Assembly (NCBI GenBank): GCA_032117235.1
Contig: JAULZW010000003.1
Location: 2,798-66,797 of the forward strand
DNA from: Minisyncoccota bacterium
GTDB lineage: Bacteria; Patescibacteriota; Minisyncoccia; SW-4-49-11
Reading direction: 5' to 3'
Length of the DNA: 64,000 nucleotides
Shown here piece by piece: positions 904 to 53,101 of the stretch (position 1 is the first letter of the stretch; each line of letters opens with the position of its first letter). The notes under the pieces are model-generated. The model did not search any database. It was given only the letters and a program-made list of their open reading frames with translations, and was not told the origin of the DNA. Made by a program: the position numbers and the translations under genes.

Positions 904-1770
904 ATGGCATTTGTAAAATATAATGAAGAAAGTGAATTTCCACTACCTAAAGAAGTAGTTTACTATGCAATATGTAAAGCTATTCCTACTATTAAAGGTA
1001 TGGAAATTAAAAATAGTGATAAGTTGCAAGGTAGAATAAGTGTGAGGGTATCTATTAGCTTATTTAGTTGGGGAGAATACATAACAATTCAATTAATTTC
1101 TATAAATGAAAAATTAACAAAGGTACAAATTAACTCTGCACCTAAGCATGGTATAGTTCTCGGTACTGCCTTAGATATGGAGAAAAATAGAAAAAATATT
1201 GAAGAAATTCTAAATAAAACCTCAAAAATTCTTTCATCTCAGACATCTATAGACTTACAGAATTACAACAAAGTTAGTAATCCAAATAATCATTCTAAAA
1301 CACAAAACTTTGATTTTATAGCAGATACCGTAAAAACTAAAAGACATTTTTATAAAAAATTATGGTTTATTATTTTATCAATAGTCGTTTTTTTAGTAAT
1401 ATTAACAAACTTTTCAAGAAACACTGGCAACCTGTCAGTAAATCAAACTAACCCAAATAAAGTTAAAGAATGGGCCATTGTTTATGAGTTTAATGGAAAT
1501 GGAATTAAAAAATCACCAGTATTCGAGTTGACTGGAAGTAATTCAAGATTAAAATACGAATATCAAAGTCCATCTGATAGTGTGGTTGGTACTTTTAATA
1601 TATATGTTGTTGATGAAGGAAAAGATATTATGAAAGAAGGTGCTTTTCCAGAAGTTATGACTTCAAAAAGTGTAAAAAGTGAAAGTTCAATTCAAAAAAC
1701 TGAAGGTAGATATTACTTAAATGTTAATGGAGTTGGTGATTGGAAAGTTATAGTAGAAGAAGAAAAATAA
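904..1770 (+). CDS. hypothetical protein with one central TM helix (288 aa)
   Basis: ORF; hydrophobic stretch WFIILSIVVFLVILTNF; no conserved motif recognised. Confidence 0.4.
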   Translation: MAFVKYNEESEFPLPKEVVYYAICKAIPTIKGMEIKNSDKLQGRISVRVSISLFSWGEYITIQLISINEKLTKVQINSAPKHGIVLGTALDMEKNRKNIEEILNKTSKILSSQTSIDLQNYNKVSNPNNHSKTQNFDFIADTVKTKRHFYKKLWFIILSIVVFLVILTNFSRNTGNLSVNQTNPNKVKEWAIVYEFNGNGIKKSPVFELTGSNSRLKYEYQSPSDSVVGTFNIYVVDEGKDIMKEGAFPEVMTSKSVKSESSIQKTEGRYYLNVNGVGDWKVIVEEEK

Positions 1771-1780
1771 AATCACCCTC

Positions 1781-2128
1781 CTACCCCCTCACCAGCAACC
1801 AAATATCTATGGCGGTGATGGTGAGGGTGGTGAGTATGGCGATGGCGACTATGCTAGAACCTATATCTTTAATCCTTTTGATTTGTATATTCCATTCTGG
1901 ATGTATAAAATCACAAATTAGTTCTATGGTAGTGTTGATGAGTTCTAGGATTATGACTAGGCTACCGAATAGTATGGTTTGTTTGATTAGATCCCAACTT
2001 TCTAGATATATTTCTAAGATTATTAGTAAGGCTATTATTATAAAGGTTTGTATAAATAAATTTCTATCTTTACTAAAGGCGTATTGTAGTCCTTCTAGCC
2101 AGAGTTTAGATTTTTGGAATAATTTCAT
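1781..2128 (-). CDS. dgkA: diacylglycerol/undecaprenol kinase family (DgkA-like) small membrane protein
   Basis: About 115 aa, 3 TM helices, ELINTTIE motif resembling the prokaryotic DgkA ELxNSAIE signature; the overlapping + strand ORF 1740..2153 is judged spurious. Confidence 0.55.
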   Translation of the reverse strand: MKLFQKSKLWLEGLQYAFSKDRNLFIQTFIIIALLIILEIYLESWDLIKQTILFGSLVIILELINTTIELICDFIHPEWNIQIKRIKDIGSSIVAIAILTTLTITAIDIWLLVRG

Positions 2129-2736
2129 AATATATCTTCTATTGCTTGCTTGAATTGGTGGTCTCGCCAGATGTCTTGATGTGGGTTGGGTAAATTGTAT
2201 AACGGGTAAAATTTAGCTTCTTGTCTTTGTGGTGGACATAGTCCGATTGGGATATATCTATTGAGTAATGTGGAGGTTATAAGGGCTGGATCCCACCAGC
2301 ACCAAAAGTTTATAAATTTTGCTTGGTTCGGTAAATTTGCCAAATCTAATTCTTCCCTACTGATATCTGCTTGGACGAATATGATTGTTTGGACTGATGG
2401 TGGTAATTTATAGTCTACTAAATAATTGACTAATAATCTAGCTCCTGAGGAATGAGCGATGATGGTTTTAGGCTTTTGGGACTCTAATTCTTGATATAAT
2501 CTTTGATGTTCTTTTGTGTCTTCTGTTTTGTATCTTTCTCTATAGTATAGTTGTATTTGGGCTATTAAATTATAGGGTGTGAGGAAGTTTCTCTGAACTG
2601 GTTCTGCCCAGATATATGGATAGGCTTGATTTTGAGTGATTTCATTGTCAAAGATATAGAATCCCCCGTTCTCGGGTATATCTGGCTCTTGTATGTCTAA
2701 GGCTTTACCATAGCCATGAATTAGAAAATATTGCAT
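2125..2736 (-). CDS. alpha/beta-hydrolase-like protein (putative esterase/lipase of unknown specificity)
   Basis: IIAHSSGARL nucleophile-elbow-like motif; size and hydrophobic pattern consistent with an a/b hydrolase fold; 4-nt overlap with the upstream gene suggests an operon. Confidence 0.4.
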   Translation of the reverse strand: MQYFLIHGYGKALDIQEPDIPENGGFYIFDNEITQNQAYPYIWAEPVQRNFLTPYNLIAQIQLYYRERYKTEDTKEHQRLYQELESQKPKTIIAHSSGARLLVNYLVDYKLPPSVQTIIFVQADISREELDLANLPNQAKFINFWCWWDPALITSTLLNRYIPIGLCPPQRQEAKFYPLYNLPNPHQDIWRDHQFKQAIEDIL

Positions 2737-4925: not shown

Positions 4926-5014
4926 GCCCCCGGTAAATGCGGAGACTGGGTTGAAAAATAAATTACTCACTTAAACTACGGGGGGGCTCCCTTGGATGGA
5001 GTACTCCATCCAAC
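4926..5014. repeat. GC-rich inverted-repeat element (gcccccgg ... ctacgggggggctccc) followed by a 22-bp perfect palindrome ttggatggagtactccatccaa (4993-5014)
   Basis: Seen directly; the core CTACGGGGG resembles the repeat family at 24.2, 25.0, 28.1, 28.2, 29.1 and 52.4-52.6 kb; likely also the speH terminator region. Confidence 0.5.
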
Positions 5015-5190: not shown

Positions 5191-6015
5191 TTGCAGATGA
5201 GTAGCAAAAAGTCTATACTAATACTACTTTATATGAATATATTATCCCCTTTTCGCTATATTAAATGTTTATTTTACCCCCGTATAAGCCCATTGATTAC
5301 GGTACATATTGATGAGGCGGCTTTATTACATAATTTGAGAGAATATAGACAAGCCTATCCTGATATACAGTTTGCCCTGTACTCAAAAGCAATGCTTATG
5401 GGCATGGACTTATTCCTATTGCCCGCATATTGGACTCCCCTAAGATCCCCTTCCTTATTGTGGACTCTTATTATGAGGCTTTAACCCTGCGGCAAAATGC
5501 TATCAAATCCCCTATTCTCATTATTGGGTATATTCTGCCTGAAATTATCAAATAATCTCGCTCGATTAGGTTTGGGATTATATGGTATTAGTATGATTGA
5601 AAATAATAAACTCTCACTGAAACCCGCTCTCACACTTACTTCTATCATTAGTGGGATAAAAGTTGTCAAAAAAGGTGATACGGTCGGATATAATAATACT
5701 TTTATTGCTAAAAATGATAGGTTAATCGCAACTATTCCCGCCGGCTATGCTGAGGGAGTAGATCGTAGATTATCTAATACCGGACAGGTGGAGATAGCAG
5801 GAATATTATGCCCCATTATTGGGCGCATTAGTATGAATATTACTACTATTGATATTACTCATATGCCGAATATTCAAATTGGAGATATCGTGACTCTTAT
5901 CAGCAATGACAATTCCTCCCCTATTTCTGCTGCTAATATTGCCAAAACCTGCCAGACTATTCCCTATGAAATTCTAATTCATATTCCCTCCCATCTCAGG
6001 CGAGTGATTAAATAA
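5191..6015 (+). pseudogene. alr: alanine racemase pseudogene (frameshifted and internally deleted)
   Basis: Three frames each carry Alr segments. Frame A has the N-terminus (VHIDEAALLHNLREYRQ). Frame B has VLKSNAYGHGLIPIARILDSPKIPFLIVDSY, the PLP-lysine motif (VVKANAYGHG). Frame C has ARLGLGLYGIS ... IPAGYAEGVDRRLSN ... SMNITTIDIT, the C-terminal domain. The total is about 270 codons against about 360 expected, implying at least two frameshifts plus a deletion. Confidence 0.65.
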
Positions 6016-21664: not shown

Positions 21665-21776
21665 ATTCTAATAAATTATATAATATTTAACTTTAATTAT
21701 ACCATAAAATTAGCAGTTTTACTAGATAGTACATAGGACAAAAATTATAAATTATGAGTTATGAATGATTAATTAT

Positions 21777-21811
21777 GGGGAGGGTTAAGGCGACATAAGG
21801 TCGCCCCTACG
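21777..21811. repeat. GC-rich hairpin element ggggagggttaaggcgacataaggtcgcccctacg
   Basis: Seen directly; carries the CCCCTACG core shared with other repeat copies; sits in a divergent intergenic region. Confidence 0.4.
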
Positions 21812-21844
21812 AAAAGCACAAAAACTTTACAAAAATATATAAAT

Positions 21845-22285
21845 ATGCTGTGTTTTGAGAGTCCCACAAGCCCTCGGAGGCTTTTTGTTATGGCTCTTTC
21901 AAAAGCTAACCAAAAATTATTAGTAACTGGCAAAATAATTATAATGCCTATATTGGCTGCTTTAGTGTATTCATGTTTATTAGACTTTTATAATCTAAAA
22001 TCACCTTATATTCACCCTCAAGAGGCTAATTTAGTTAAATTATGTATAATAGCATTATTAATAGTGATAGGAAACATAATACTTCTTTTTAATGAGATGT
22101 CATTATTTTGGAGTATTATAGTGGTAGCAATTTTTATATTAGCTTTTACACCACTTTATTTTTATAGCATAAAGATTCTGTTAAGTGTCATATTATATTT
22201 TCTCTGCTTATATTCAATAGACATAATCATTTTTATGATGAGATTTCTCGAAAGGAGAATTCATCAAAATCACACCCCTCGCTGA
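21845..22285 (+). CDS. hypothetical membrane protein (4 TM)
   Basis: Hydrophobicity only; the stop codon TGA lies in the terminator loop. Confidence 0.35.
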   Translation: MLCFESPTSPRRLFVMALSKANQKLLVTGKIIIMPILAALVYSCLLDFYNLKSPYIHPQEANLVKLCIIALLIVIGNIILLFNEMSLFWSIIVVAIFILAFTPLYFYSIKILLSVILYFLCLYSIDIIIFMMRFLERRIHQNHTPR

Positions 22286-22305
22286 GCGAGGGTTTTTTCT
22301 TTTTG
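22274..22305 (+). terminator. rho-independent terminator
   Basis: cccctcgc-tga-gcgaggg stem followed by ttttttcttttt. Confidence 0.6.
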
Positions 22306-22322
22306 CATGGTTTTTACCAATT

Positions 22323-22817
22323 TTACAAATTTAAAGCTAATTTATACACTTTTAATATTTTACTATAATAAGAAGTATTTAATAATGCTTCTGGGTTTTT
22401 CTTCACTACACTAAAGACTTTACTTTTAGATGTTTTCTTGGGAAGTTTTAATGCTGACTTTAACTCATCCTCTAAATTTTTATCTTGCCAGACAATAAAA
22501 ATACCAGCTTCTTTTGCATCTAACTCTAAATTTTTTATATATAAATCATTGTTTAAGTCATTATTATTATATATTCTGTCAAGGTCGACAACACATAACA
22601 TAGCATCAAATTCTGTATTTTGTTTCCATTTTTTACACCCAACTAAGATTGTATGAGGATCCCCACCTTTACCTGAATTAAAATAAGATTGACAGTTATT
22701 TGTATGATATTTAAATTGACTTATTTCAACAAGATAGTCAATTATTTTGCTATCCTTTAATCCTTCCGTATAAACCCCTATTGTTTGTTTTTTACTTTTG
22801 GTATTAGGTTTGACCAT
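22323..22817 (-). CDS. RloB/AbiLii-like TOPRIM-type protein (partner of the upstream AAA_21 ATPase)
   Basis: 164 aa; N-terminal IGVYTEG (conserved Glu) and VVDLDR (DxD) arranged as in TOPRIM/RloB-like proteins; 5-nt spacing to the upstream ATPase gene. Confidence 0.5.
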   Translation of the reverse strand: MVKPNTKSKKQTIGVYTEGLKDSKIIDYLVEISQFKYHTNNCQSYFNSGKGGDPHTILVGCKKWKQNTEFDAMLCVVDLDRIYNNNDLNNDLYIKNLELDAKEAGIFIVWQDKNLEDELKSALKLPKKTSKSKVFSVVKKNPEALLNTSYYSKILKVYKLALNL

Positions 22818-22822
22818 ATAAG

Positions 22823-23995
22823 CTAAACTTTAATTTTTGGAAAACCTCCATATTTTCCAGACATATATTTTTTTACAAAATTTTCATCGGGACGAGAATT
22901 TTCAATATCTGATACCCTATAGACTTCACTTTCACCTTTATTATTCTTATCTACAATAAAAATTTGTTCACGATCTAATTTATTTAAGATATTGATTGAA
23001 TGGGTAGAAAAAATAAACTGACACATTATATTCTCACTCTCAGATAAAAAATAAGAGATTAGTTTTTCAACAGCCTCAGGATGTAATCCCATTTCTAATT
23101 CATCAATTACAACTAAACCCTTGTATTTCATCGCAAGAAATATTGGTCCTAATAGTTCATAAAGAGATTTAGTACCTCGAGATTCATACTTAAAATCAAG
23201 AGATTTGTTACCGTGAATACCTTTAATATCAAAACTTCCATTATCTTTCTTATCTATGTTAAAAGACTCTAAACCAATATCAAATTTAGATATAAATTCT
23301 TTCATTTCTTCAAAAACCTCAGGTATTTCGGTATATATCCAAGATGCTAGATAAATATTTTTATCATTGAGAGAACTTTCATTCATATTTACTTGCCATA
23401 ACAAACCACTGAACATATTTTTAATCTCTTCCATAATATCAATTTTGAATGAAATTTCACTAAAAAAAGCAATTACGGACACATTATTTTTTATATCAGG
23501 TAATTTTAACTCCAGAGCATTAATTTTATCAAAATATATTTCAGATAACTGTAATTTTCCATTACTATCTCTTTCAAAAATATTATGTAATCTTTTTCCC
23601 TTAGTTTTGACTTGCATTTTCTCCAATAATACTATATTTTTTTGAATTTTTAGAGTATAAAAAAATATTTTTTGATTTTTTTCTAATTCTAGCTTAATTT
23701 CACATATATTATCATTATTGAAAAAAGTTTTATAAGATAATGATGTTTCTTGAGAAATATTTTCCAGCTTATCTGTAGGTCTTTTTGTAATAAAGTCTTG
23801 TATAAATTTAAATAGACGAACTATATTAGTTTTACCAGAAGCATTTCCTCCAATAATTGTAGCAATTTTGCTAATTTGATACTTATCAACTTTTGACTGC
23901 ATATAATCAAAAGTATTTTTTTTGGAAGTTAAAAAAGACATTTCAAAAGAATCTTGAAAAGAGTAAAAATTTTTAAAAGAAATTTTACGAATCAT
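22823..23995 (-). CDS. AAA_21-family (ABC-like) ATPase, RloA/AbiLi-like abortive-infection ATPase
   Basis: Walker A IIGGNASGKTNI near the N-terminus; C-terminal VVIDELEMGLHPEAVEKL...IFSTHS (D-loop/H-loop of the AAA_21/OLD-like ATPase family). Confidence 0.65.
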   Translation of the reverse strand: MIRKISFKNFYSFQDSFEMSFLTSKKNTFDYMQSKVDKYQISKIATIIGGNASGKTNIVRLFKFIQDFITKRPTDKLENISQETSLSYKTFFNNDNICEIKLELEKNQKIFFYTLKIQKNIVLLEKMQVKTKGKRLHNIFERDSNGKLQLSEIYFDKINALELKLPDIKNNVSVIAFFSEISFKIDIMEEIKNMFSGLLWQVNMNESSLNDKNIYLASWIYTEIPEVFEEMKEFISKFDIGLESFNIDKKDNGSFDIKGIHGNKSLDFKYESRGTKSLYELLGPIFLAMKYKGLVVIDELEMGLHPEAVEKLISYFLSESENIMCQFIFSTHSINILNKLDREQIFIVDKNNKGESEVYRVSDIENSRPDENFVKKYMSGKYGGFPKIKV

Positions 23996-24118
23996 AGATT
24001 ATAAATTTATTGTACATATATATTACAATACTTAATAACAAAAGTCAACTTAATACAAAAATCTGTATTAAAAACATTTTAACTTCAATACATAATGACT
24101 TTAAGAAAAGTAAAACAA

Positions 24119-24180
24119 AAACTCGAGACATTGCTCGAGCTTTCATAATAATCACCAGAGCTAGGCTCTGGATCGGTAGG
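24119..24180. promoter_or_regulatory. two hairpins (ctcgagacattgctcgag; ccagagctaggctctgg) in the divergent AbiL-like/mod promoter region
   Basis: Perfect inverted repeats seen directly between divergently transcribed defence genes; candidate operator sites. Confidence 0.3.
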
Positions 24181-24249
24181 TAACCCCAAAAGTAAGATAA
24201 TTATAGAATAGTTTAGTGATAGTGTCAATAGTTGATGGTGAGGTTTTAT

Positions 24250-24287
24250 CCTCCTCCGACCTTACGGCCACCTCCTCCAAAGGAGGA
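24250..24287. repeat. GC-rich palindromic element copy (cctcctccgaccttacggccacctcctccaaaggagga)
   Basis: Shares the architecture cctcc..TACGG..cctccaaaggagg with 28189-28228 and relatives. Confidence 0.55.
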
Positions 24288-24438
24288 CAAGTAATTATCT
24301 TATATTCTATGCAAATCTTTAATTTATTGACTTTTTATCTCGTAATTTGTCTACGATCATCTAATCGAGTACATACTCTGTATTTTTATGGGATTACAAG
24401 GTATAATATAAGATATATAGAATAATAAATTATAATAT

Positions 24439-26208
24439 ATGCCAGGAATTAATTTTAGGTCAATTATATTATCAGTATTGGAGGCGGATGAGAGAATTTG
24501 GTTTCAAAATGAAGAGGGAGAGAAGGAATTAAATCAAACTTTGCTTTTGGATTTGGTAGAAAAGATTGATGATAAGATTATTAATTTATTATTACAAGAG
24601 GAGGCTTTGAGAGAGAAGTTTTTTGCTAAAATTAGTCCAGATACTACTGAGAAGCAGTCTACTTATGTCTTCAAGATGAATGACTTTAGATTCTTTATGG
24701 AGGAGAATAAAATAGATAATTCTTATACAGCTTATAAAAACAGAATAGGGCTGATAGATGGGAAGAAATTCCTCAAAGATAGTAATGATATAGTGCTAAA
24801 TTGGCCGTATAAAGATTGTATTTTGGAAGGTGGGCAAAGTAATGAGGAAGGCACGGATAATTATTTTGAATACTCCGAAAAGACAGAGCAGTACGAACAA
24901 AAACAAGCTAAAAGAAAAGAGATATTTTTTAATTCCGTTCTTGCTCCTGATGAAATTGATAGATTATTAGACCCCAAGGCCTTGGTGAATTGGAAAAGGT
25001 TTACAGATAATGGTGAAGTTTCTTTAACCCAAAAACACTCCACCCCGTCACCTACGGTGCCACCCCTCAAGAGGGGAATTGATGGTACTATTGCTGAGAA
25101 TATGATTATCAAAGGTAATAATCTACTAGCTATGCATAGTCTCAAGAAGCAATTTGCAGGTAAAGTGAAGCTTATCTATATTGACCCGCCTTATAATACT
25201 GGGAATGATGGGTTTAAGTATAATGATAATTTTAATCATTCCACTTGGCTGACTTTTATGAAAAATAGATTAGAAGTAGCAAGGGAATTGTTAAGAGAGG
25301 ATGGAAGTATTTGGATAAGTTTAGATGATAAAGAATTTGCTTATCTAAAAGTACTTTGTGATGATATTTTTGGGAAAAATAATTTTTTGAATGATGTCAT
25401 TTGGAACTCAACAAAATCAGTAACAAATACTGCAATCATATCTGTTTCACATACACATAATTTAGTTTACTTCAAAAACAAAGATTATTATGTAAAGAAC
25501 AGAACAGAATTTAGACTTGATGAAGATGGGGAAGGATTTTCTAATCCTGACAATGATCCTCGTGGAGTTTGGAAATCCGATCCTTTTCAAGTTGGAGGCT
25601 GGAGACCAAATCAACAATATGAAATAAAAAACCCAAATACTGGAGTCATTTATAAACCAAATGAAAATTGTAGTTGGAAAAATGATCTTAACAAATTTCA
25701 AGAATTATTAAAAGATAATAGAATTGTTTTTGGAGTGGATGGAAAAGCTGGTCCACAAAGAAAAAGGTTTTTATTTGAAGCAGAAGAAAGAGGTAAAGTT
25801 ACAAAAACAATATGGGATGATGTAGGAACAACTACTAATGGAACTCAGCACATAAAAAAGCTTTTCAATAAAGCTGTATTTGATAATCCCAAACCAGAAG
25901 AGTTTATAAAAAGAATTATTGAACTTTCAACAAATGAAAACGACATTGTCCTTGACTATCATCTCGGATCTGGCACAACTGCCGCCGTAGCTCATAAAAT
26001 GGGGCGGCAATATATTGGGATTGAGCAGATGGATTATGTGGAGACTATTGCGGTGGAGAGGCTCAAAAAAGTGATAGGACAATCCACCTCCCCCGCTAAA
26101 GCGGGTACTACTCAAAAGGAGAATTTTAGGAAATTAACAGCAAAAAAAAGGCAAAGTTTGCAAGATATTTTGGAGAAAATAAAAAATTCTAATAATAGTT
26201 TAGGGTAA
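24439..26208 (+). CDS. mod: Type III restriction-modification DNA methyltransferase (Mod), N6-adenine, beta-class
   Basis: ENMIIKGNNLLAMHSL followed by motif IV DPPYNTG, then C-terminal motif I LDYHLGSGTTAAVAHKMGRQYIGIE; the N-terminus resembles Type III Mod N-termini. Confidence 0.85.
   Translation: MPGINFRSIILSVLEADERIWFQNEEGEKELNQTLLLDLVEKIDDKIINLLLQEEALREKFFAKISPDTTEKQSTYVFKMNDFRFFMEENKIDNSYTAYKNRIGLIDGKKFLKDSNDIVLNWPYKDCILEGGQSNEEGTDNYFEYSEKTEQYEQKQAKRKEIFFNSVLAPDEIDRLLDPKALVNWKRFTDNGEVSLTQKHSTPSPTVPPLKRGIDGTIAENMIIKGNNLLAMHSLKKQFAGKVKLIYIDPPYNTGNDGFKYNDNFNHSTWLTFMKNRLEVARELLREDGSIWISLDDKEFAYLKVLCDDIFGKNNFLNDVIWNSTKSVTNTAIISVSHTHNLVYFKNKDYYVKNRTEFRLDEDGEGFSNPDNDPRGVWKSDPFQVGGWRPNQQYEIKNPNTGVIYKPNENCSWKNDLNKFQELLKDNRIVFGVDGKAGPQRKRFLFEAEERGKVTKTIWDDVGTTTNGTQHIKKLFNKAVFDNPKPEEFIKRIIELSTNENDIVLDYHLGSGTTAAVAHKMGRQYIGIEQMDYVETIAVERLKKVIGQSTSPAKAGTTQKENFRKLTAKKRQSLQDILEKIKNSNNSLG
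25036..25080. repeat. 45-nt GC-rich palindromic element inserted in frame within mod (encodes HSTPSPTVPPLKRG-like segment)
   Basis: cactccaccccgtcacctacggtgccacccctcaagaggggaatt; 19-nt core GTGGCACCGTAGGTGACGG is identical (reverse complement) to 28105-28123; flanks match 29071-29112. Confidence 0.6.
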
Positions 26209-26212
26209 AGAT

Positions 26213-27193
26213 ATGACTAAAAAAAGTAAAATCCAATACAGCTTAATACCTTTTAATGGAGATGAAATAATGGCAATTACCAAAGATGGTAAAAAGTTTG
26301 TAGTACCAAAACAGATTTGTGAGAATTTAGGGTTGTCATGGAGTGGTCAATTTGAAAAAATTAAAAGAGACAGTGTCTTAAAGGACGCAATTCGTGTCAT
26401 ACCAATACCGCAAAAAAACCCTTCAGGATCAGGGTTTATAAATCAAGAAACTCTAGCTTTACCACTGGAATATCTCAATGGTTGGTTATTTGGAATTGAT
26501 GATACGAGAGTAAAAGAAGCAATTAGGCCAAAAATAATTGATTATAAAAAGCAATGTTATATTGTTTTATATGAATATTTTAATAAAGGTGCAAGTATTG
26601 ATGTCAATAGATTAGAGGAGGATATTGAATTACAAGACTATATTTACCGCAAAGTTCGCCAAGCTAGAACTAGTGAAAGGAGTTTATGGGAGAGAGTTAA
26701 AAAAGCCTTTGAATATGGGAGTAAAGATTATGATAAAGATTCTGAATTAGCCAAAAAGTTTTATGCTTTAGCTCAAGATAAAATTCATTATGCGGTTACC
26801 AAAAATATAGCTTCTGAACTTATATATAATAGAATAAAAACAGATCCAGCAACAAATTTTGGTATGATTGCATTTGACCAATATAGAAAAATTAAGTTAA
26901 AAGATTTACAAGTAGGTAAAAATTATTTGCAAGAATTAGAGTTAAAACAGTATGAAAATATTGGAGAACAGCTTTTACTTAAAATCGAATTAAGATTATT
27001 AAGAGGTGGTAAAATAACTATGGAAGAATGGTTTTTTGAAATAAATGATTTATTAAAACAAAATGGATATGAAATTTTATTTGATTATTCTAAATCCAAG
27101 ATAGATCGTCAAACTGCTAATAGTAAAGCTAAAGAAATATGGAAAGAAAATAAGCATTTACTCAAAGAAGATGTTAAAAAACTAACTAAATAA
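26213..27193 (+). CDS. phage antirepressor-like protein (Bro-N/AntA/pRha-type N-terminal domain, uncharacterised C-terminal domain)
   Basis: N-terminus IPFNGDEIMAITKDGKKFVVPKQICENLGLSWSGQFEKIKRD and LPLEYLNGWLFGIDDTRVKEAIRPKIIDYKKQCYIVLYEYF resemble phage antirepressor/RhuM-like N-terminal regions. Confidence 0.45.
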   Translation: MTKKSKIQYSLIPFNGDEIMAITKDGKKFVVPKQICENLGLSWSGQFEKIKRDSVLKDAIRVIPIPQKNPSGSGFINQETLALPLEYLNGWLFGIDDTRVKEAIRPKIIDYKKQCYIVLYEYFNKGASIDVNRLEEDIELQDYIYRKVRQARTSERSLWERVKKAFEYGSKDYDKDSELAKKFYALAQDKIHYAVTKNIASELIYNRIKTDPATNFGMIAFDQYRKIKLKDLQVGKNYLQELELKQYENIGEQLLLKIELRLLRGGKITMEEWFFEINDLLKQNGYEILFDYSKSKIDRQTANSKAKEIWKENKHLLKEDVKKLTK

Positions 27194-27202
27194 GATTAAT
27201 TT

Positions 27203-27712
27203 ATGAAGAATAATCATCTACAATTAAGCAAATTTGAAATTCAACTTTTGGAAAGTTTAGGTTTTGACCCAAATTCACAGAATCTACAAGAGGAAATACA
27301 GGAAATGTTGGAAACTAGCAAAGTTGCATCACAACAAGATTTTGATACTGGAGGTATTAGTAAAGCCGTAAATTGGCAAGGTGGTGGTGATTTTATCTAC
27401 TTTGAACTAGCAAAATGGAATGAAGTTGCCAAAGAGAGAATTTTAGAGGCTGAGAGTTTAGAGCAATTGATTGAGTTTTTTGATGAGATGTATGAGAGAT
27501 ATTTCCTTAACTATAATCTCAAAATTCAAGAGTTTAGAGATAAGATTATACAGGAGGAGAGTTTTCAGAATCTGCCTTTAGCGGAGCAAAAACAGATTTT
27601 TATAGCTATGCTGGATAATAATCAGATGTATGTGAATGCTTCTGAAATGTCAGATGCTAAATTTGGTATTAGTGAGGAGGAGCAGGCTTTGACTGAGGAG
27701 TTTTATAATTAA
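27203..27712 (+). CDS. hypothetical acidic protein (169 aa), third member of the mod-res intervening cassette
   Basis: ORF begins 10 nt after the previous stop; no motif recognised. Confidence 0.35.
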   Translation: MKNNHLQLSKFEIQLLESLGFDPNSQNLQEEIQEMLETSKVASQQDFDTGGISKAVNWQGGGDFIYFELAKWNEVAKERILEAESLEQLIEFFDEMYERYFLNYNLKIQEFRDKIIQEESFQNLPLAEQKQIFIAMLDNNQMYVNASEMSDAKFGISEEEQALTEEFYN

Positions 27713-27728
27713 TTATAAATTGTGAATT

Positions 27729-28115
27729 ATGAATGATAAATTAAAAAAATCATCTAATCAAACAATAGAGTCTAGCTCAGGTATTAAGAAAAACTTAATA
27801 ACTTCTACTGGTGATAAAAAAGATAATTCAATTATTTTATTTAATCAAAAAGAAGTTCGCAGATACTGGGATGCGGATCAAGAGCAGTGGTACTTTTCGG
27901 TTGTGGATGTGATTGAAATTTTGACAGGCTCTAGTATTCCGAAAAGATATTGGAGTGACTTAAAAAATAAACTAAAAGAAGAAGGAAGTGAAGTGTACGA
28001 AAAAATCGTACGGTTGAAAATGAAAGCAGAAGATGGAACAGGGATTAATAATCTTATGTTTAAACTACAACATTATCCTTTTAACTGTCCTCCCTTGGGG
28101 GAGGTGGCACCGTAG
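27729..28115 (+). CDS. Bro-N domain protein (128 aa)
   Basis: ILFNQKEVRRYWDADQEQWYFSVVDVIEILTGS matches the Bro-N/ORF6N consensus (iRvv..dGepWFvakDVa..Lg); the C-terminus and stop codon lie inside a GC-rich repeat element. Confidence 0.5.
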   Translation: MNDKLKKSSNQTIESSSGIKKNLITSTGDKKDNSIILFNQKEVRRYWDADQEQWYFSVVDVIEILTGSSIPKRYWSDLKNKLKEEGSEVYEKIVRLKMKAEDGTGINNLMFKLQHYPFNCPPLGEVAP

Positions 28116-28130
28116 GTGACGGAGGAGGAC
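28087..28130. repeat. GC-rich palindromic element copy (gtcctcccttgggggaggtggcaccgtaggtgacggaggaggac)
   Basis: 5' half near-identical to 52427-52452; core identical to the in-frame copy in mod. Confidence 0.6.
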
Positions 28131-28188
28131 TATACATATTTTTAAATTTATCATCTATACTCCTAGTTAATAATTCTCATTTGCAAAT

Positions 28189-28228
28189 GTCCTCCCTCCC
28201 CCTACGGGGACTCCCTCCAAAGGGAGAC
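28189..28228. repeat. GC-rich palindromic element copy (gtcctccctccccctacggggactccctccaaagggagac)
   Basis: Same architecture as 24250-24287. Confidence 0.55.
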
Positions 28229-28352
28229 ATCATTCTCTTAACCTAATTAAAAGAGTATAAAACATTATAGACACTACAAGAATATAATATTATAATAGTA
28301 ATAAAATCAAGGTTTAATCTATTATTTCTACAATTCACAATTAATATAAACT

Positions 28353-31145
28353 ATGTCTGAGATCAAAAACTTATATGAGATAATCAACACTCAAAAGCAA
28401 GGATTAAAAAACTTTAATCCTGAAATTTTTGAAATCCCAGATTATATTTCTAATAATTTGAAATATAGTTTTTTTGATTGGCAAAGGGAGGCTTTGGAGA
28501 ACTTTTTATTTTATCAAAATCCAAAATCAAATTTAGCTAAATCCCCTACTCATCTAATGTTCAATATGGCGACTGGAACGGGGAAAACTATGCTAATGGC
28601 GGCTTCTATTTTGTATTATTATAAACAGGGTTATCGGCATTTTATCTTTTTTGTGAATCAAAATAATATTGTTAGTAAGACAGAGAATAATTTTATTGCT
28701 AATTTGCATAATAAGTATTTATTTCAAGACAAAATTGTGATTGATAATCAGACGGTGGAGATTAAAAAAGTGGAGGCTTTTAGTGATAATCCGACTGGTA
28801 TTGAGATTAAATTCACTTCGGTACAAAAATTATATAATGATATTCATTTACAAAGAGAAAACCAGACTACTTTACCGGATTTATGGAATAAAAATATTGT
28901 AATGTTGGCTGATGAGGCTCATCATCTCAATACGGATACTAAAAAAGCGAAATTACAGACCGCTTTACTTGACACTGAACTGAACAATAAATCTAGTGAA
29001 AATGTGGTTGAAAAGCTAGGCTGGGAGCATACGGTGATTGAATTGATTTTGAATAAAAATAATAAAAAATCCACCCCGCTGTCTAAAGACAGCACCCCTC
29101 AAGAGGGGAATTCTAACTGTAATGTCTTATTAGAATTTACGGCGACTATTCCAGCTACTGCCAGTGTGGCGAAGAAATATGAGGATAAAATTATTTATAA
29201 ATTTGATTTGAAGCAATTTTTGCAAGCTGGGTTTACGAAGCAGATTAATCTGATTTCTTCTAATCTGAATAAGCGGGATAGAATTTTGCAGGCTTTATTA
29301 TTTCATTGGTATCGGCATAAAGTTGCTCTGGATGCTGGTATTCCTAATTTTAAGCCGGTGATTTTATTCCGTAGCAAGACTATTGAGGAGTCTAAGTATG
29401 ATTATGAGGAGTTTTTGGATATGATTCAGAATTTGAGTTTGGATGATTTACAATTTTTGGATTATATTTTAGAGAACTTTAAGTTTGCTAATCATAGTTT
29501 GTATGAACAAGGTAAGAATAGGACAGAGCAATTAGTAGATTATATTCAAGTTAATAAAATTAAAAGAAGTGAGATTATTGACTTTTTGAAGCAGAATTTC
29601 CAAGCTAAAAATGTGATTATTACTAACTCTAAGAGTAATAAAACTAAAAAAGAAAAAACTGATGAGGAAATAGATAATTTATTGAATAATTTGGAGGACA
29701 AAAATAATCATATTCGAGCTATTTTTACAGTGGAGAGATTAACTGAAGGTTGGGATGTGCTGAATTTATATGATATTGTACGGTTATATGAGGGGCAGAA
29801 TACAGGAGGGTCTTATCAGAAAGGTAATAAACCTCCTGAATCTACCACCAAAGAAAAGCAGTTAATTGGTCGTGGAGTGAGATATTATCCTTTTGATTAT
29901 CCAGAAAAAGAGAGGCATCGGCGAAAATTTGATAATGATACTCAAAAACGAGAGCGAATTTTGGAGGAGTTATTCTTTTATAGTATCAATGAAAGTAGGT
30001 ATATCTCGGAGTTAAAAACCGAGCTCAAGAGGGATGGGTTTATTGATGAGAATCGTAATATTAGAACCTTTGAATTGAAGGATAGCTTTAAGAAAACCAA
30101 TTTCTATAAACAGGTTAAAGTTTGGCAGAATAAAAAAATCCCGAATCCAAATAGACGGAAGAATACTCTAGCCGATTTGAAGCAAGATAAAAATTATTTT
30201 ATGTCTGCTTATCAGGTGCCAACTTATAGTGTAAGAGAAGACGGAGTGGACTTTGAGAAGGAGGAAAAAGAATATAGATTGAATCAAATGGCTAATCCAA
30301 ACTCTAACTTTGAGATTCCTTTAGCTAAGATGGAGAAACATATTTTTTATAAAGCGATTCATATTTTATCTAAACAAAGCAATTCTTTATATCGTTTTGA
30401 TAATTTGAGGCAAGAATTGAATATTGATAGTATGGAGGATTTGTTGCAAGCGGAGTTTTTGGGAGATATTATGATACCTTTTAAGCTACCAGCTAAAATG
30501 ACTTATCAGGATTTGGATAATAAGCATAAATTACAGGCAGTGATGCAAGTTTTGACTGATATTGAGCGAAGATTAGCGGAGTCTATTAGTGAATATATTG
30601 GTAGTAAGGAGTTTTATCCAAAGAGTTTGGAGAGTATTTTTGGAGCTCCGAAAGCTAAGGCGATTGACACTTTGAATGAGCATACCGAGATGGCTGAACA
30701 AAATGATTGGTATGTTTTGAATAATTTTGTAGGCACAGATCAGGAGCAGTCTTTACTGGAGTTTATCAAAAGCTCTATGTCTGAGTTAGAGCAAAAATAC
30801 GGTGAGATTTATTTATTAAGAAATGAAGAGGTGTATGGGATTTATGATTTTGACAAAGGTAGAACTTTTATGCCGGACTTTTTGTTATTTTTGAAAACTA
30901 AGGATAAACACAATGTAGGAGTGTCTAAGACGGAACTATACTATCAGGTATTTATTGAGCCAAAAGGTGCTCAATTAGCAACTTTGGATGCTTGGAAAAA
31001 TGACTTTCTAGCTGAAATTCAATATAATTATAAATTGGAGAATATAATTCAAGCTGAAAACTCTAATTATAGATTGATTGGACTACCTTTCTTTAATACT
31101 AATCTAAGTGCCGAGTTTAGAGATAAATTCTCAGAATTAATTTAA
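28353..31145 (+). CDS. res: Type III restriction enzyme Res subunit (SF2 DEAH helicase plus C-terminal PD-(D/E)xK endonuclease)
   Basis: Motif I ATGTGKT, motif II LADEAHHL, helicase C motifs (QLIGRGVR), C-terminal MPDFLLF...YQVFIEPKG nuclease motif. Confidence 0.85.
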   Translation: MSEIKNLYEIINTQKQGLKNFNPEIFEIPDYISNNLKYSFFDWQREALENFLFYQNPKSNLAKSPTHLMFNMATGTGKTMLMAASILYYYKQGYRHFIFFVNQNNIVSKTENNFIANLHNKYLFQDKIVIDNQTVEIKKVEAFSDNPTGIEIKFTSVQKLYNDIHLQRENQTTLPDLWNKNIVMLADEAHHLNTDTKKAKLQTALLDTELNNKSSENVVEKLGWEHTVIELILNKNNKKSTPLSKDSTPQEGNSNCNVLLEFTATIPATASVAKKYEDKIIYKFDLKQFLQAGFTKQINLISSNLNKRDRILQALLFHWYRHKVALDAGIPNFKPVILFRSKTIEESKYDYEEFLDMIQNLSLDDLQFLDYILENFKFANHSLYEQGKNRTEQLVDYIQVNKIKRSEIIDFLKQNFQAKNVIITNSKSNKTKKEKTDEEIDNLLNNLEDKNNHIRAIFTVERLTEGWDVLNLYDIVRLYEGQNTGGSYQKGNKPPESTTKEKQLIGRGVRYYPFDYPEKERHRRKFDNDTQKRERILEELFFYSINESRYISELKTELKRDGFIDENRNIRTFELKDSFKKTNFYKQVKVWQNKKIPNPNRRKNTLADLKQDKNYFMSAYQVPTYSVREDGVDFEKEEKEYRLNQMANPNSNFEIPLAKMEKHIFYKAIHILSKQSNSLYRFDNLRQELNIDSMEDLLQAEFLGDIMIPFKLPAKMTYQDLDNKHKLQAVMQVLTDIERRLAESISEYIGSKEFYPKSLESIFGAPKAKAIDTLNEHTEMAEQNDWYVLNNFVGTDQEQSLLEFIKSSMSELEQKYGEIYLLRNEEVYGIYDFDKGRTFMPDFLLFLKTKDKHNVGVSKTELYYQVFIEPKGAQLATLDAWKNDFLAEIQYNYKLENIIQAENSNYRLIGLPFFNTNLSAEFRDKFSELI
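29071..29112. repeat. 42-nt GC-rich palindromic element inserted in frame within res (encodes STPLSKDSTPQEGN-like segment)
   Basis: ccaccccgctgtctaaagacagcacccctcaagaggggaatt; flanks identical to the mod copy (ccaccccg ... cacccctcaagaggggaatt), with a different internal palindrome gctgtctaaagacagc. Confidence 0.6.
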
Positions 31146-31155
31146 GGTTTAATCT

Positions 31156-32145
31156 ATGGCTGAACTATTCGCTTTTATATTCTTAATATCACTAGTTTGT
31201 TTGGTGTTGGGTTTGATTCGGCCAGCAATATTTACTAAGTTATTTCGTGATAAGCCTAAGAGGAAACAAACTGGAGTGCTTTTTGGGGTTTTGATTTTTA
31301 TTTCTATTGTTGTAATAGGGGCTAGTCCTGCTCCTGAGGTATCTCAAGATATAAAACCTGAACCAGTAGCGAAGACGGTGGAAACTACAGATGTCGCGCC
31401 TGCGGAGGACAATACTACTACTCCTGAGCCTGAGAGTGTGTCTGTGGTGCCTGTTTTACCAGCTCTAAGCCCTACTGAAGAGCAGTCTAGTATTCCACAG
31501 CCCGAGGTAAAGCAAGAGTCAAATTCTGCCCAAAATCCGACTAGAGATTTATTCAAAGTAACTGAAGTTGTAGATGGAGATACGATTAAAGTTAGTACGA
31601 TTGGGACATTGAGATTAATTGGTATAGATACTCCTGAAACAAGAGATCCTCGTAAACCAGTACAATGTTTTGGTAAGGAGGCTAGTAATAAGGCTAAGGA
31701 ATTATTAAGTGGTAAAAAGATATATCTAGAATATGACCCTGCCAACAAAATAGATAAATATGGAAGAACTTTAGCTTATGTTTATCGTGAAGATGGATTA
31801 TTCTATAATGCTGAGATGATTAAACAGGGGTATGCTCATTCTTATGTACAATTCCCCCACCCTAGATTAGATGAATTCAATACTTATCAGCAAGAGGCTA
31901 GAGAGAATAATAGAGGTTTTTGGGCGACTAATACTTGTAATGGAGATACTATTCAAGCCGTTTCGGTGAGTTCTAAAACTGCCATTCCCCTACCGATTAG
32001 CCATGAGATAAATAAAGATGGGTTTATCAAAGGTAGTTGTGCGAGTTTGATAAAATTAGGTTTAGGTAATTTTGAAAGAGGAGACCCTAATTATACTGAA
32101 TCCAGAGACCGCGATGAGGATGGTATTGCTTGTGAAATGAATTGA
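31156..32145 (+). CDS. membrane-anchored thermonuclease (SNase-like) with C-terminal Excalibur calcium-binding domain
   Basis: N-terminal TM helix, Pro/Glu-rich linker, SNase core (VVDGDTIKV...LRLIGIDTPET...YGRTLAYVY), C-terminal DRDEDGIACE Excalibur motif; begins 11 nt after res. Confidence 0.7.
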   Translation: MAELFAFIFLISLVCLVLGLIRPAIFTKLFRDKPKRKQTGVLFGVLIFISIVVIGASPAPEVSQDIKPEPVAKTVETTDVAPAEDNTTTPEPESVSVVPVLPALSPTEEQSSIPQPEVKQESNSAQNPTRDLFKVTEVVDGDTIKVSTIGTLRLIGIDTPETRDPRKPVQCFGKEASNKAKELLSGKKIYLEYDPANKIDKYGRTLAYVYREDGLFYNAEMIKQGYAHSYVQFPHPRLDEFNTYQQEARENNRGFWATNTCNGDTIQAVSVSSKTAIPLPISHEINKDGFIKGSCASLIKLGLGNFERGDPNYTESRDRDEDGIACEMN

Positions 32146-32282
32146 GAATTTATATAACCTTGCAAAAAAGCTAATTCTATGCTATTATCAATTTAATCTT
32201 TCGCCTAGTCCTTGATTGACCTAAGTTTCTAAATCTGAGTATCTACAGATTTAATGTCCATTTATTATTATTGTATAGAATA

Positions 32283-52090: not shown

Positions 52091-52201
52091 ATCTTATCTA
52101 TCTTAAACTATACTTTAATTATACCCTGAATAATTTGTTTTTACTAGATTTGTATTTTTTGTTCTTTATTTATTATATATATAATAGTAGATAGTAGTAT
52201 C

Positions 52202-52397
52202 TGTGGAAAAGCTTAAAACTGGTTTTTACCCGCATAAATAGTGTATGTCAAGTGGGGATATCATTTGGGATAAGTATCTGTAAACTTTGGGGATAAGATT
52301 ATATGTAGAAAATCTCTGTGGATTAAGTTCTATTTATACACAATATTATTCACAGAAATAGAGGGATTCTGTATAAGTTATACACAGGTTATACACA
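52202..52397. promoter_or_regulatory. DnaA-box cluster in the dnaA-dnaN spacer (putative oriC core)
   Basis: Perfect TTATNCACA boxes at 52334-52342, 52346-52354, 52378-52386 and 52389-52397 (same orientation); imperfect inverted boxes TGTGGAAAA at 52202-52210 and TGTGGATTA at 52307-52315. Confidence 0.6.
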
Positions 52398-52426
52398 ATG
52401 GTAAAATATAATGTAAATAAACGATT

Positions 52427-52466
52427 GTCCTCCTTAGGAGGAGGTGGCACGAAGTGCCGGAGGTGG
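52427..52466. repeat. GC-rich palindromic element copy inside the oriC region
   Basis: gtcctccttaggaggaggtggcacgaagtgccggaggtgg; 5' half matches 28087-28112. Confidence 0.55.
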
Positions 52467-52530
52467 ATAGAGATAAAAGTTATTTATATTTTCTAATAAT
52501 ATTAAATTTTAGAATATGGACTTACTTTTA

Positions 52531-52590
52531 CCCACCCCCGCCTTTCAGGCTTCCCCCCTCCCTGCCTACCGCAGGCAGGCAAAGGGGGAC
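52531..52590. repeat. C-rich/G-rich palindromic element (cccacccccgcctttcaggcttcccccctccctgcctaccgcaggcaggcaaagggggac)
   Basis: Same cctcc...stem-loop...caaaggggg architecture; lies between the DnaA boxes and the AT-rich DUE-like tract. Confidence 0.5.
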
Positions 52591-52595
52591 AAAAA

Positions 52596-52703
52596 CATAA
52601 TGTCACAACTATAAAAAATATAAAATCATAACAAAATATAATAATAAATTAATTAATAATGCTATAGACAATAGTAAATGTTAAAAATAAATAACAACAA
52701 CTA
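52596..52703. promoter_or_regulatory. AT-rich tract, candidate DNA-unwinding element of oriC
   Basis: About 90% A+T over about 100 nt immediately adjacent to the DnaA-box cluster. Confidence 0.4.
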
Positions 52704-52732
52704 TTGACGAAATTAGGAAAATGTGGTATATA
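52704..52732 (+). promoter_or_regulatory. sigma70-like promoter TTGACG-N17-TGgTATATA
   Basis: Near-consensus -35 and extended -10 with 17-nt spacer, immediately upstream of a GC-elevated segment. Confidence 0.4.
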
Positions 52733-52740
52733 TAGTTTTG

Positions 52741-53050
52741 TAAACATCGCCGATTTTTCCATGGACGAATCAACCGAAACTGAATTTCTTTCACTGACCA
52801 GCCATGACGGGCCTGTCTACATTCGACCAGATCTGATAGTGGCTGTTTCAGAATAATATGTCGGCGGTTCGAACAACAGGACCAGGATAGATTTAAGCAC
52901 AGGGTCATCTGTTTTGGTAACACAACCAGGCGAGTCTATAATGAGAGCAATAAATGCAAAAATTGTTGAGGTATAAACAATTCATTCATTTAAATCCATA
53001 TTTTAAACTCTCCCTACACTCCTTCCATCTTGGTCGGAGTGTTTTTTGTT
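52741..53050 (+). other. GC-elevated transcription unit of uncertain nature: structured ncRNA candidate, or interrupted small CDS (71 codons with an in-frame TAA)
   Basis: GC well above the flanks, promoter upstream, hairpin plus T-run terminator at 53015-53050. The + frame reads MDESTETEFLSLTSHDGPVYIRPDLIVAVSE*YVGGSNNRTRIDLSTGSSVLVTQPGESIMRAINAKIVEV. Confidence 0.3.
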
Positions 53051-53101
53051 TAATATATTAAGTCAATTAGTAGTTTTATGTAAGTATAACGCTACTAATC
53101 C

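Follow-up and report, generated by a model that had tools for sequence, protein, structure and literature searches.

A modular two-hairpin repeat inserted in frame in a type III mod gene of a candidate phyla radiation bacterium and shared across bacterial phyla

The DNA analysed here, called the window throughout, is a 64,000-nt stretch of a Minisyncoccota bacterium (assembly GCA_032117235.1, contig JAULZW010000003.1, forward strand, positions 2,798 to 66,797; 32% GC). Its type III methyltransferase gene mod carries, in frame, an inserted copy of a short repeat built from constant arms around a variable inner hairpin. The element belongs to a repeat family found in several phyla, its inner hairpin covaries, its copies in candidate phyla radiation (CPR) bacteria frequently lie in frame inside genes, and no transposase gene adjoins it. 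No standard model explains cross-phylum identity, identical arms at orthologous sites and cassette-like exchange of the hairpin. We lean, with modest confidence, towards a non-autonomous mosaic element resembling repetitive extragenic palindromic sequences and bacterial interspersed mosaic elements (REP/BIME), which would be mobilised in trans at the DNA level through its hairpin, with conversion between copies.

The mod open reading frame (ORF; 24439–26208, + strand) encodes 589 aa in which PF12564 and PF01555 were detected, identifying it as a type III Mod. Its block 25036–25080 has a GC content of 62%, below the roughly 70% estimated in an earlier sequence-only reading of the window, against 33.5% across mod. 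That reading had also placed the element in frame before the IIKGNNL region, and both the frame arithmetic, (25036 − 24439) mod 3 = 0, and the translation agree: the block encodes HSTPSPTVPPLKRGI, which stands immediately ahead of the Mod methylase core. The element itself is composed as follows.

25038–25081, + strand: type 1 element in mod, 44 nt (covariance model 61.1 bits, E ~1e-15)
25039–25046, + strand: left arm TCCACCCC, then G at 25047
25047–25060, + strand: inner hairpin hp1, stem CACC/GGTG, loop TAC
25063–25076, + strand: outer hairpin P2, CCCCT-CAAG-AGGGG
25077–25080, + strand: tail AATT

Translation of 25038–25081 gives (H)STPSPTVPPLKRGI. A 19-nt core, GTGGCACCGTAGGTGACGG, occurs at exactly two window sites, 25045–25063 (− strand) and 28104–28122 (+ strand), a match reproduced in 0 of 100 shuffles; the reverse-complement copy previously assigned to 28105–28123 therefore exists, at 28104–28122, and overlaps the last codons of a truncated Bro-N ORF (27729–28115) instead of being purely intergenic. 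The 20-mer CACCCCTCAAGAGGGGAATT is present at 25061–25080 and, inside the restriction gene res, at 29093–29112 (again matched in 0 of 100 shuffles), which bears out the proposal that the flanks are common to a second in-frame copy in res. The description of the element as palindromic is weakly true of the mod copy, which forms two short hairpins of 4 and 5 bp with an unexceptional fold energy (z = −1.7 as DNA and about −0.1, precisely −0.06, as RNA); the fold of the res copy is strong (z = −3.6). Alignment to the solved structures of Mod proteins (6K0W, 4ZCF) starts at residue 220 (ENMIIKGNNL), so the insert, at residues 200–214, lies just outside the conserved core. An AlphaFold model of Mod shows residues 197–207 and 548–570, two element-encoded stretches, as coil with pLDDT <50, in a model of moderate quality (mean pLDDT 65) that we take as weak support only.

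By sequence comparison, the mod block is an inserted repeat copy and not ancestral Mod sequence. A homology search with Mod recovered the exact protein and thousands of homologues, and the linker at this point varies in length and sequence across all Mods. In outgroup Mods (≤72% identity) it reads ...GEENVKE-VKKDKDGTI... and is devoid of the Pro/Thr segment. Close relatives have the N-terminus MPGINFRSIILSVLEADERIW in common and fall into three linker states (P numbers denote aligned Mod proteins; L001–L126, comparison DNA loci or contigs).

Linker HSTPSPTVPP: Mods P0001, P0005 and P0024
Linker IPLLRGGDKVDGVDA: Mods P0007, P0008 and P0056
Linker empty: Mods P0013, P0015, P0017 and P0023

At the DNA level, the mod allele of L002 has no element at this linker, and the alleles of L003–L006 carry AATTCCCCTCTTGAGGGGTG-GCGACAAAGTCGAC-GGGGTGGA, a reversed element with another inner hairpin. 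We conclude insertion because empty, filled and reverse-filled alleles occupy one linker of near-identical mod genes, and because res, too, occurs in alleles that lack the element: 917-aa alleles have GNLIDNT at the place of NKKSTPLSKDSTPQEGNSNC in 930-aa alleles, which are longer by a net 39 nt. The earlier idea of a 45-nt insertion thus stands as to insertion and fails as to cleanness. The window mod allele exceeds the empty one by a net 27 nt, neighbouring linker codons differ and the junctions are unclean; in the mod, res and intergenic comparisons alike, adjacent sequence is replaced rather than duplicated. Other mod alleles contain extra copies after AKIS and after YFE.

Comparison of copies yields a single plan: (A/T)TCCACCCC, G, the variable hairpin hp1, CACCCCTCAAGAGGGG and AAT(T). 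In type 1, the constant 19-mer CACCCCTCAAGAGGGGAAT follows directly after hp1. The left arm is, in all subtypes, a repeat of P2's 5' strand (CCACCCC, CCTCC, CCTCCTCC or CTCCCTCC), and the type 1 arm terminates in G where P2 has T. The 7-nt direct repeat CCACCCC brackets the inner hairpin, not the whole element. Inverted termini measure 7 nt in CCTCC types (GTCCTCC...GGAGGAC) and amount to only CCCC/GGGG in the type 1 copy of mod. The family is defined by its flanks, and the 19-nt 'core' is the swappable inner hairpin. Read directly, the constant part is open in five of six frames, three of which occur as protein: PPLKRGI in mod, TPQEGN in res and IPLLRG in the reverse copy of L003. Two resemblances may be fortuitous. 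CCTCC-arm copies (for example 24249–24289 and 28085–28130) loosely resemble the 16S rRNA 3' end, CCGT..CCTRCGGT..CACCTCC (helix 45 3' strand plus the anti-Shine–Dalgarno (anti-SD) sequence), and in these elements the anti-SD-like strand pairs with an SD-like GGAGG in P2, possibly by chance in C-rich sequence. In one human-gut subtype the left arm mirrors P2 instead of repeating it directly. A triplex or mirror-repeat relation between left arm and P2 is conceivable but may likewise be chance.

The inner hairpin is conserved in structure. Among 147 copies, hp1 takes 109 distinct sequences, with stems clearly longer than in shuffles. In a 116-sequence alignment, which was seeded with the exact 19-mer and is thus not an unbiased set, hp1 covariation scores 0.273, compared with 0.067 in shuffles (none of 500 as high) and 0.03–0.06 for slid partners. 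Cells changed on both sides number 207 (79 ± 10 in shuffles), and only about 6 are G-U pairs. Copies within one Thermotogaceae metagenome-assembled genome (MAG) differ by compensated double changes (aacc/ggtt, aatc/gatt, agtc/gact). Intergenic copies display no orientation bias relative to their flanking ORFs. Pairing of Watson–Crick type only, together with this lack of bias, points to a constraint that acts on DNA rather than on a single RNA strand.

The family extends far beyond the window. At least 119 stretches from the species-representative genomes of GTDB contain the 19-mer CACCCCTCAAGAGGGGAAT, all with the same plan, where about 4 chance matches would be expected (an estimate from database size for a 19-mer in 596 Gb, both strands). 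CPR carriers include, among the matches listed, Paceibacteria, Nomurabacteria, Saccharibacteria, Gracilibacteria and Peribacteria. Bacteroidota carriers include the isolates Pedobacter mendelii CCM 8685, Parasediminibacterium sp. JCM 36343 and Flavobacterium sp. RHBU_24 as well as complete chromosomes, and further chromosomes come from Kapabacteria/Ignavibacteria (Ignavibacteriota). A Thermotogaceae (Thermotogota) MAG of 25–27% GC has about 12 carrier contigs, and a termite-gut Bacillota MAG has 10. Carrier MAGs are also found in Nitrospirota, Desulfobulbaceae, Sulfurovum, Simkania, Bdellovibrionales, Hyphomicrobiales and Limisphaerales. Some carrier contigs that are single and small in their MAG may be mis-binned. 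A spread over at least five phyla is nevertheless robust, because isolates, chromosomes and many-contig MAGs carry the element. The 19-nt hp1 core, for its part, recurs in 112 metagenome stretches with at least seven arm/P2 types, in contigs of 31–69% GC that include human-gut and soil samples; finding one hp1 among so many arm types indicates that both modules are conserved separately and freely recombined. The element is accordingly not special to this low-GC lineage: cultured Bacteroidota carry it, and its inner hairpin occurs in contigs of 58–69% GC. A phage vector found no support in IMG/VR, where the 19-mer matched only once. As for the host, the window at 44.5–52 kb is 82–90% identical to MAG L027 and 72–76% identical to L017, a Candidatus Paceibacteria MAG from Lake Mendota, which places it as a CPR relative of Paceibacteria.

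Many of these further copies lie in frame in other proteins. Twenty-seven of the 149 copies are deep inside ORFs of at least 200 codons, 20 in sense and 7 in antisense to the host gene, and the intragenic share is 22% in CPR versus 5% in other phyla (Fisher p = 0.005). Hosts include an arginase-family enzyme, PurD, PheT, TatD, Tgt, RNase R, a PIF1-like helicase, an FAD oxidase and KsgA. Every intragenic copy detected has an open frame continuous with the host ORF, which is biased evidence on frame as the screen could pick up only frame-preserving cases. The usual intragenic form in CPR is a head-to-head dimer encoding SPLEEYPLGGGG..STP..ATPQEGN. It occupies the same codon position in orthologues, each from another species, of KsgA (L025, L069, L081), PheT (L037, L098) and PurD (L030, L031). 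The three KsgA loci have the 37-nt block TTCTCCTCTTGAGGAGTACCCTTTAGGGGGAGGTGGA and the right half in identical form, where the flanking gene is 53–77% identical and hp1 differs. Decay does occur: it has affected the left half of the PurD copy in L030 and a C-terminal copy of the window Mod. Since selfish DNA that is passive should decay, arms that stay identical in orthologues call for conversion, re-insertion or selection.

Besides the copy in the Mod linker, the window holds seven elements, listed here with the host gene res.

28353–31145, + strand: res, host gene, type III restriction subunit, 930 aa, PF04851
29069–29113, + strand: type 1 copy in frame in res, (K)STPLSKDSTPQEGN, hp1 CTGTC-TAAA-GACAG, 60.9 bits
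26082–26125, + strand: decayed third in-frame copy at the mod C-terminus, ATCCACCTCCCCCGCTAAAGCGGGTACtactcaaaaggagaatt, encoding (Q)STSPAKAGTTQKENF, below the covariance-model threshold
28085–28130, − strand: CCTCC-arm relative, GTCCTCC-T-CCGTCACCTACGGTGCCA-CCTCCCCCAAGGGAGGAC, Whalefall-1 17.2 bits
28189–28230, + strand: CCTCC-arm relative, GTCCTCCCTCC-CCCTACGGGG-A-CTCCCTCCAAAGGGAG-ACA, Whalefall-1 25.4 bits, E 0.002, below gathering threshold
24249–24289, + strand: CCTCC-arm relative, TCCTCCTCC-GACCTTACGGCC-A-CCTCCTCCAAAGGAGGACA, 150 nt upstream of mod
52426–52467, − strand: CCTCC-arm relative in the dnaN–dnaA spacer, weak model match of 11.8 bits
52530–52592, + strand: CCTCC-arm relative in the dnaN–dnaA spacer, with an extra hairpin CTGCCTACCGCAGGCAGG inside the P2 loop

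The covariance model found no strong copy in the window besides those in mod and res, which are translated in different frames. The C-terminal mod copy is intact in L002, L003 and L005 (...TACTCCTCAAGAGGAGAATT, 39.7 bits) and common to the whole Mod lineage (QSTSPAKAGT...); outgroup Mod C-termini differ. The element at 28085–28130, which overlaps the end of the Bro-N remnant ORF, has the same hp1 core as the mod copy and is 100% identical to L049:2279–2327. Six of the eight window elements fall within the restriction–modification (R-M) island. The other two, in the dnaN–dnaA spacer (52091–53101, a likely origin region), are the only copies in about 50 kb of housekeeping sequence.

Exchange of parts is visible between close relatives. 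At 28104–28122 the window and L003 carry GGCACCGTAGGTGAC, where L005, otherwise about 99% identical, carries GGTCACTCCCATACTTTAGTTTGGGAGTGGAC, a swap of hp1. The element upstream of mod (24249–24289) differs from L002/L005 in left arm and hp1 and agrees with them in right half and flanks. The nested P2-loop hairpin of 52530–52592 is missing in L003 and present in L005. Related genomes have arrays of copies separated by short linkers; in one of them, a spacer holds an array of three to four elements at a site that is empty in the window. In many loci from GTDB and metagenomes, elements are immediately preceded by strings such as GAATTATGAATT, which are similar to a 33-nt AT-rich direct repeat of the window (described below) that may be another mosaic module. 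When the 868 ORFs of 119 element-bearing loci were clustered all against all, no protein family recurred beside the copies beyond local synteny, and Pfam detected no transposase or integrase domain in the 19 window ORFs scanned, small unknown ones included.

The R-M island (21800–32150) consists of an AAA_21 ATPase gene, mod, a RhuM/P22_AR_N gene, a 169-aa ORF, the Bro-N remnant, res and an SNase gene. It is 94–98% identical to L002, L003, L005 and L126, whereas housekeeping genes (dnaN, dnaA, yidC and others) are only 77–87% identical. Its distance from the dnaA–yidC–glycosyltransferase block is about 30 kb in the window; in other genomes it adjoins that block. This combination of identity and placement suggests that the island has been horizontally exchanged and relocated. 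Mod residues ~290–480 (25300–25900), the central target-recognition regions, are unrelated between alleles that have N- and C-termini in common, as is typical of type III mod shuffling. ORF 27729–28115 (128 aa) represents the 5' third of a Bro-N gene whose intact form (305 aa) is found in L126 (2081–2998); the remnant ends within the element at 28085–28130, and two elements there take the place of the remainder of the gene. An independent assembly, L001 (Logan contig SRR22423862_69923), stops exactly at this element cluster near 28115, which suggests that the repeats break short-read assemblies. A 33-nt AT-rich direct repeat, AATTATAAATTRTGARTTATGAATGATWAATTA, occurs at 21743–21775 and 27711–27743 (91% identical). 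Beside the island in other genomes stands a PF11266 (aldehyde decarbonylase-like) gene of 55–60% GC in genomes of about 33% GC, foreign by composition (L002 19150–19830; L003 17610–18290; L005 17660–18360, there split into two ORFs).

The element comprises a C-rich left arm, a freely variable hp1 and a constant P2 that repeats the left arm on its 5' strand. On the mobilisation reading favoured above, a copy would have been written into the Mod linker, between the N-terminal domain and the methylase core, at the cost of a few linker codons and with the frame kept. Translated, it would form a loop, rich in Pro, Thr and Gly and probably disordered, which would be tolerated by the enzyme without contributing to Mod function. 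Spread and maintenance would proceed at the DNA level via the folded hairpin and an enzyme acting in trans, as proposed for REPs and HUH/Y1 (RAYT-type) enzymes. Conversion between copies would keep them alike and swap hp1 cassettes, and the positions and frames that survive would be those that selection passes.

Several observations weigh against this. The mod, res and intergenic comparisons demonstrate no transposition mechanism, and the filled-versus-empty comparisons of mod, res and one intergenic site show neither a target-site duplication nor a clean junction. A candidate mobilising enzyme was not found in the 119 loci or the 19 window ORFs. The arms are nucleotide-identical at orthologous KsgA, PheT and PurD sites despite flanks of 53–77% identity, unlike decaying junk DNA, so that the label 'selfish' given to the element earlier holds at most as a conjecture. 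Some 30 nt are near-identical across phyla, which is unusual for REPs, normally lineage-specific. Finally, the disordered loop is weakly evidenced, the Mod model being only moderate. A bolder account, which we entertain tentatively and regard as clearly less probable, posits an unrecognised class of modular DNA element common to many bacterial phyla. Here a constant frame (arm and P2) and a library of hp1 sequences would each be conserved and would be actively recombined or regenerated by a dedicated enzyme or by an uptake/conversion drive; CPR housekeeping genes would be colonised in frame at a scale hitherto known only from the Rickettsia palindromic elements (RPEs); and identical arms would reflect ongoing site-specific rewriting, not descent.

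Two further explanations appear to us improbable, and about equally so. The first is a functional structured RNA of a wider Whalefall-1-like class, acting in cis on stability, processing, termination or ribosome pausing, in which P2, with its SD-like and anti-SD-like strands, could interact with ribosomes and nucleotide conservation would be selection on RNA. Two intergenic copies do match RF01762 (25.4 and 17.2 bits), a motif rated a certain RNA by its authors from covariation (PMC2864571). The strong hp1 covariation, the identity of arms and P2 where host genes have diverged, the terminator-like T-run after P2 in some genomes, and head-to-head dimer halves that differ by changes giving G-U pairs on one strand would all suit such an RNA. 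It sits poorly with the use of both orientations (20 sense and 7 antisense in genes, and all four arrangements between genes), with an hp1 nearly free of G-U pairs, with presence or absence between near-identical alleles that show no other change, and with the unrelatedness of the host genes; the mod copy, moreover, folds no better than shuffles (z = −0.06) and matches no Rfam family.

The second is a DNA signal of the cell or of the mobile island, serving binding, uptake or recombination, kept uniform by molecular drive and aiding R-M cassette exchange; possible parallels are the uptake signal and DNA uptake sequences (USS/DUS) and REP interactions with gyrase or integration host factor (IHF). 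Uptake sequences are likewise orientation-independent and identical, and also occur in genes with a preferred reading frame, as the copies here do. Six of eight window elements lie in the R-M island, whose identity to relatives (94–98%) exceeds that of housekeeping sequence (77–87%) and whose placement in the window differs; the elements of mod alleles fall on module borders (behind AKIS, behind YFE, in the pre-core linker and at the C-terminus); and hp1 is swapped as a cassette. The density is low and patchy, however, with two copies only in about 50 kb of housekeeping sequence, and we judged it too low in the window for an uptake-like sequence. The many unrelated phyla are hard to square with a host-specific uptake or binding signal, and no cognate protein was identified.

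Far less probable still is that the insert is never translated, through byp-like ribosome hopping or excision from the mRNA. Frame would then be irrelevant, and the protein would lack HSTPSPTVPPLK and the ...ATPQEGN... junctions. The size of about 44 nt and the presence of GC-rich hairpins of an AT-rich genome inside essential genes are reminiscent of byps. All detected intragenic copies, from a frame-preserving and hence biased screen, are nonetheless open and continuous with the host ORF, three frames are free of stops, and no ribozyme family matched. Chance resemblance of an ordinary, compositionally odd Mod linker has practically no probability left: linkers do vary in length and sequence in all Mods, but the exact 19- and 20-mers at other sites (0 of 100 shuffles), the model E of ~1e-15 and the hundreds of copies elsewhere refute it.

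These findings extend in-frame colonisation by palindromic repeats, treated as a Rickettsia speciality (PMC10969869), to CPR bacteria and to genes as central as those for KsgA, PheT, PurD, Tgt and RNase R. They raise the questions of what holds about 30 nt identical across phyla and orthologous sites, what swaps the inner hairpin, and whether Whalefall-1 is truly an RNA or the footprint of a DNA element. The inserts add Pro/Thr/Gly-rich loops to CPR proteins and could mislead annotation, alignment and binning. Experiments are feasible because cultured Pedobacter, Flavobacterium and Parasediminibacterium carry copies.

Elsewhere in the window, the alanine racemase gene (5191–6015) appears to be broken into three overlapping frames (5191–5484, 5430–5555 and 5497–6015), with PF00842 on the last only; it is a pseudogene or contains two assembly frameshift errors. 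The ORF-poor segment 4917–5190, after an AdoMet decarboxylase gene, has GC-rich patches at 4926–4950 and 4975–5004, does not match the element plan and gave no Rfam, tRNA or tmRNA match. At 1773–1834 a GC-rich inverted pair of C-rich and G-rich sequences (TCACCCTCCTACCCCCTCACCAGCAACC ... GGCGGTGATGGTGAGGGTGGTGAG) lies within ORFs 1740–2153 (+ strand) and 1781–2128 (− strand); a Pfam scan of ORF 1740–2153 gave no match.

Among known systems, relatives of the element are catalogued in Rfam as the motif Whalefall-1. At gathering threshold, Rfam matched nothing in the whole window; at E ≤10 it returned Whalefall-1 only, with 25.4 bits (28189–28230) and 17.2 bits (28085–28130) against a gathering score of 37 bits. 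The mod and res copies, with CACCCC arms, had no Rfam match, and no ribozyme, riboswitch or terminator family was matched in the window. A tRNA origin was rejected, as a tRNA/tmRNA search found none. Whalefall-1 (RF01762) is known from 16 whale-fall metagenome sequences and presumed to be a non-coding RNA (Weinberg et al. 2010, PMC2864571). Reverse-complemented, each copy runs from the P2 hairpin through the hp1 hairpin to (C)GGGGTGGA or GGAGGAGGAC, and Whalefall-1 has this same layout on the opposite strand: first a hairpin that is constant, next one that is variable, and last a purine-rich tail in which the 3' strand of the first hairpin recurs. Unlike the present element, it was never tied to coding regions, repeats or mobility. 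The earlier reading was not aware of such elements being documented in a low-GC lineage of this kind, and relatives were already on record as Whalefall-1; our literature search returned no paper with the literal P2 sequence and nothing specific to the element in CPR. A 2024 review of MITEs, transposable elements of miniature size with inverted repeats, describes frequent in-frame insertion as a Rickettsia peculiarity and leaves CPR unmentioned (PMC10969869). The target-site duplication that would mark a MITE was not seen in mod, res or the one intergenic site compared.

The likeness to RPEs proposed by the sequence-only reading is well founded. RPE-4 and RPE-6, together with Neisseria dRS3, belong to the CGTC-tagged REPs, a group with intragenic copies and without a transposase of its own (Di Nocera, De Gregorio & Rocco 2013, PMC3733652); the majority of the copies here bear the tag. 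As in that group, where the foot may also be TGTC or CCTC, there is a GC-rich hairpin with an unpaired CGTC 5' foot (CCCC-GTC in 92 of 147 copies, including mod, CCCC-GTC-ACC...; 65 of 116 copies show a T-C mismatch at alignment column 11/31) and a CCA-like 3' tail, (C)CAC following the hairpin in all copies, partly forced by the search pattern; CCTCC-arm relatives have such a tail too (GCCACC). Head-to-head dimers, frame-keeping intragenic copies and the lack of an adjoining transposase gene are further points in common, and the taxa overlap in Thermotogae, Sulfurovum and Bacteroidetes/Chlorobi. Unlike the CGTC-tagged REPs, with an 8–9 bp stem starting with A-T pairs and a 4–5 nt loop, stems here are mostly 3–6 bp (4 bp with a 3-nt loop in mod), the hairpin is free in sequence and always framed by a left arm and a second hairpin that are both constant, and the constant parts are near-identical across phyla. 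The peptides (STP...TPQEGN, PPLKRG, IPLLRG) also differ from those of CGTC-1 to CGTC-4, and membership in these was rejected on stem length and encoded peptides. CPR bacteria lay outside that survey (PMC3733652).

RPE-1 and other RPEs, of about 100–150 bp and restricted to Rickettsia, are regarded as selfish elements that proteins tolerate in their surface loops (Ogata et al. 2000, 2002, summarised in PMC10969869). Our element resembles them as a multi-copy palindromic repeat lying in frame in unrelated genes, housekeeping genes included, of a small AT-rich genome. It differs in its length of 40–50 nt (about 80 nt as a dimer), in its many phyla and in its inner-hairpin cassette swapping, which is not reported for RPEs. 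We set it apart from the RPE families by length, organism and peptides (the last against RPE-4/6, that is, CGTC-1/4); similarity to RPEs in nucleotide sequence is not expected.

Outside bacterial chromosomes, the GC clusters and byps of yeast mitochondria are short mobile GC-rich hairpins that invade coding genes of an AT-rich genome. In work by Lang et al. in 2014, byp inserts were reportedly bypassed by the ribosome and need not be in frame. Unlike these organellar inserts, the copies detected here are in frame and also occur in GC-rich bacteria. REP, BIME and REPIN (REP doublet) sequences of Proteobacteria form non-autonomous mosaic arrays of hairpins in both orientations and are served by REP-associated tyrosine transposases (RAYTs, HUH/Y1); classical REPs are extragenic and lineage-specific. 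Our element differs from the GTAG REP/REPIN type in that its alignment contains no GTAG tag and that no RAYT/Y1 gene was seen among the 19 window ORFs or the recurrent neighbours. It agrees with REP/BIME in its mosaic hairpin arrays with short linkers and both orientations, and in conserving the structure of the hairpin rather than its sequence; recognition of folded single-stranded DNA is a plausible mechanism for both.

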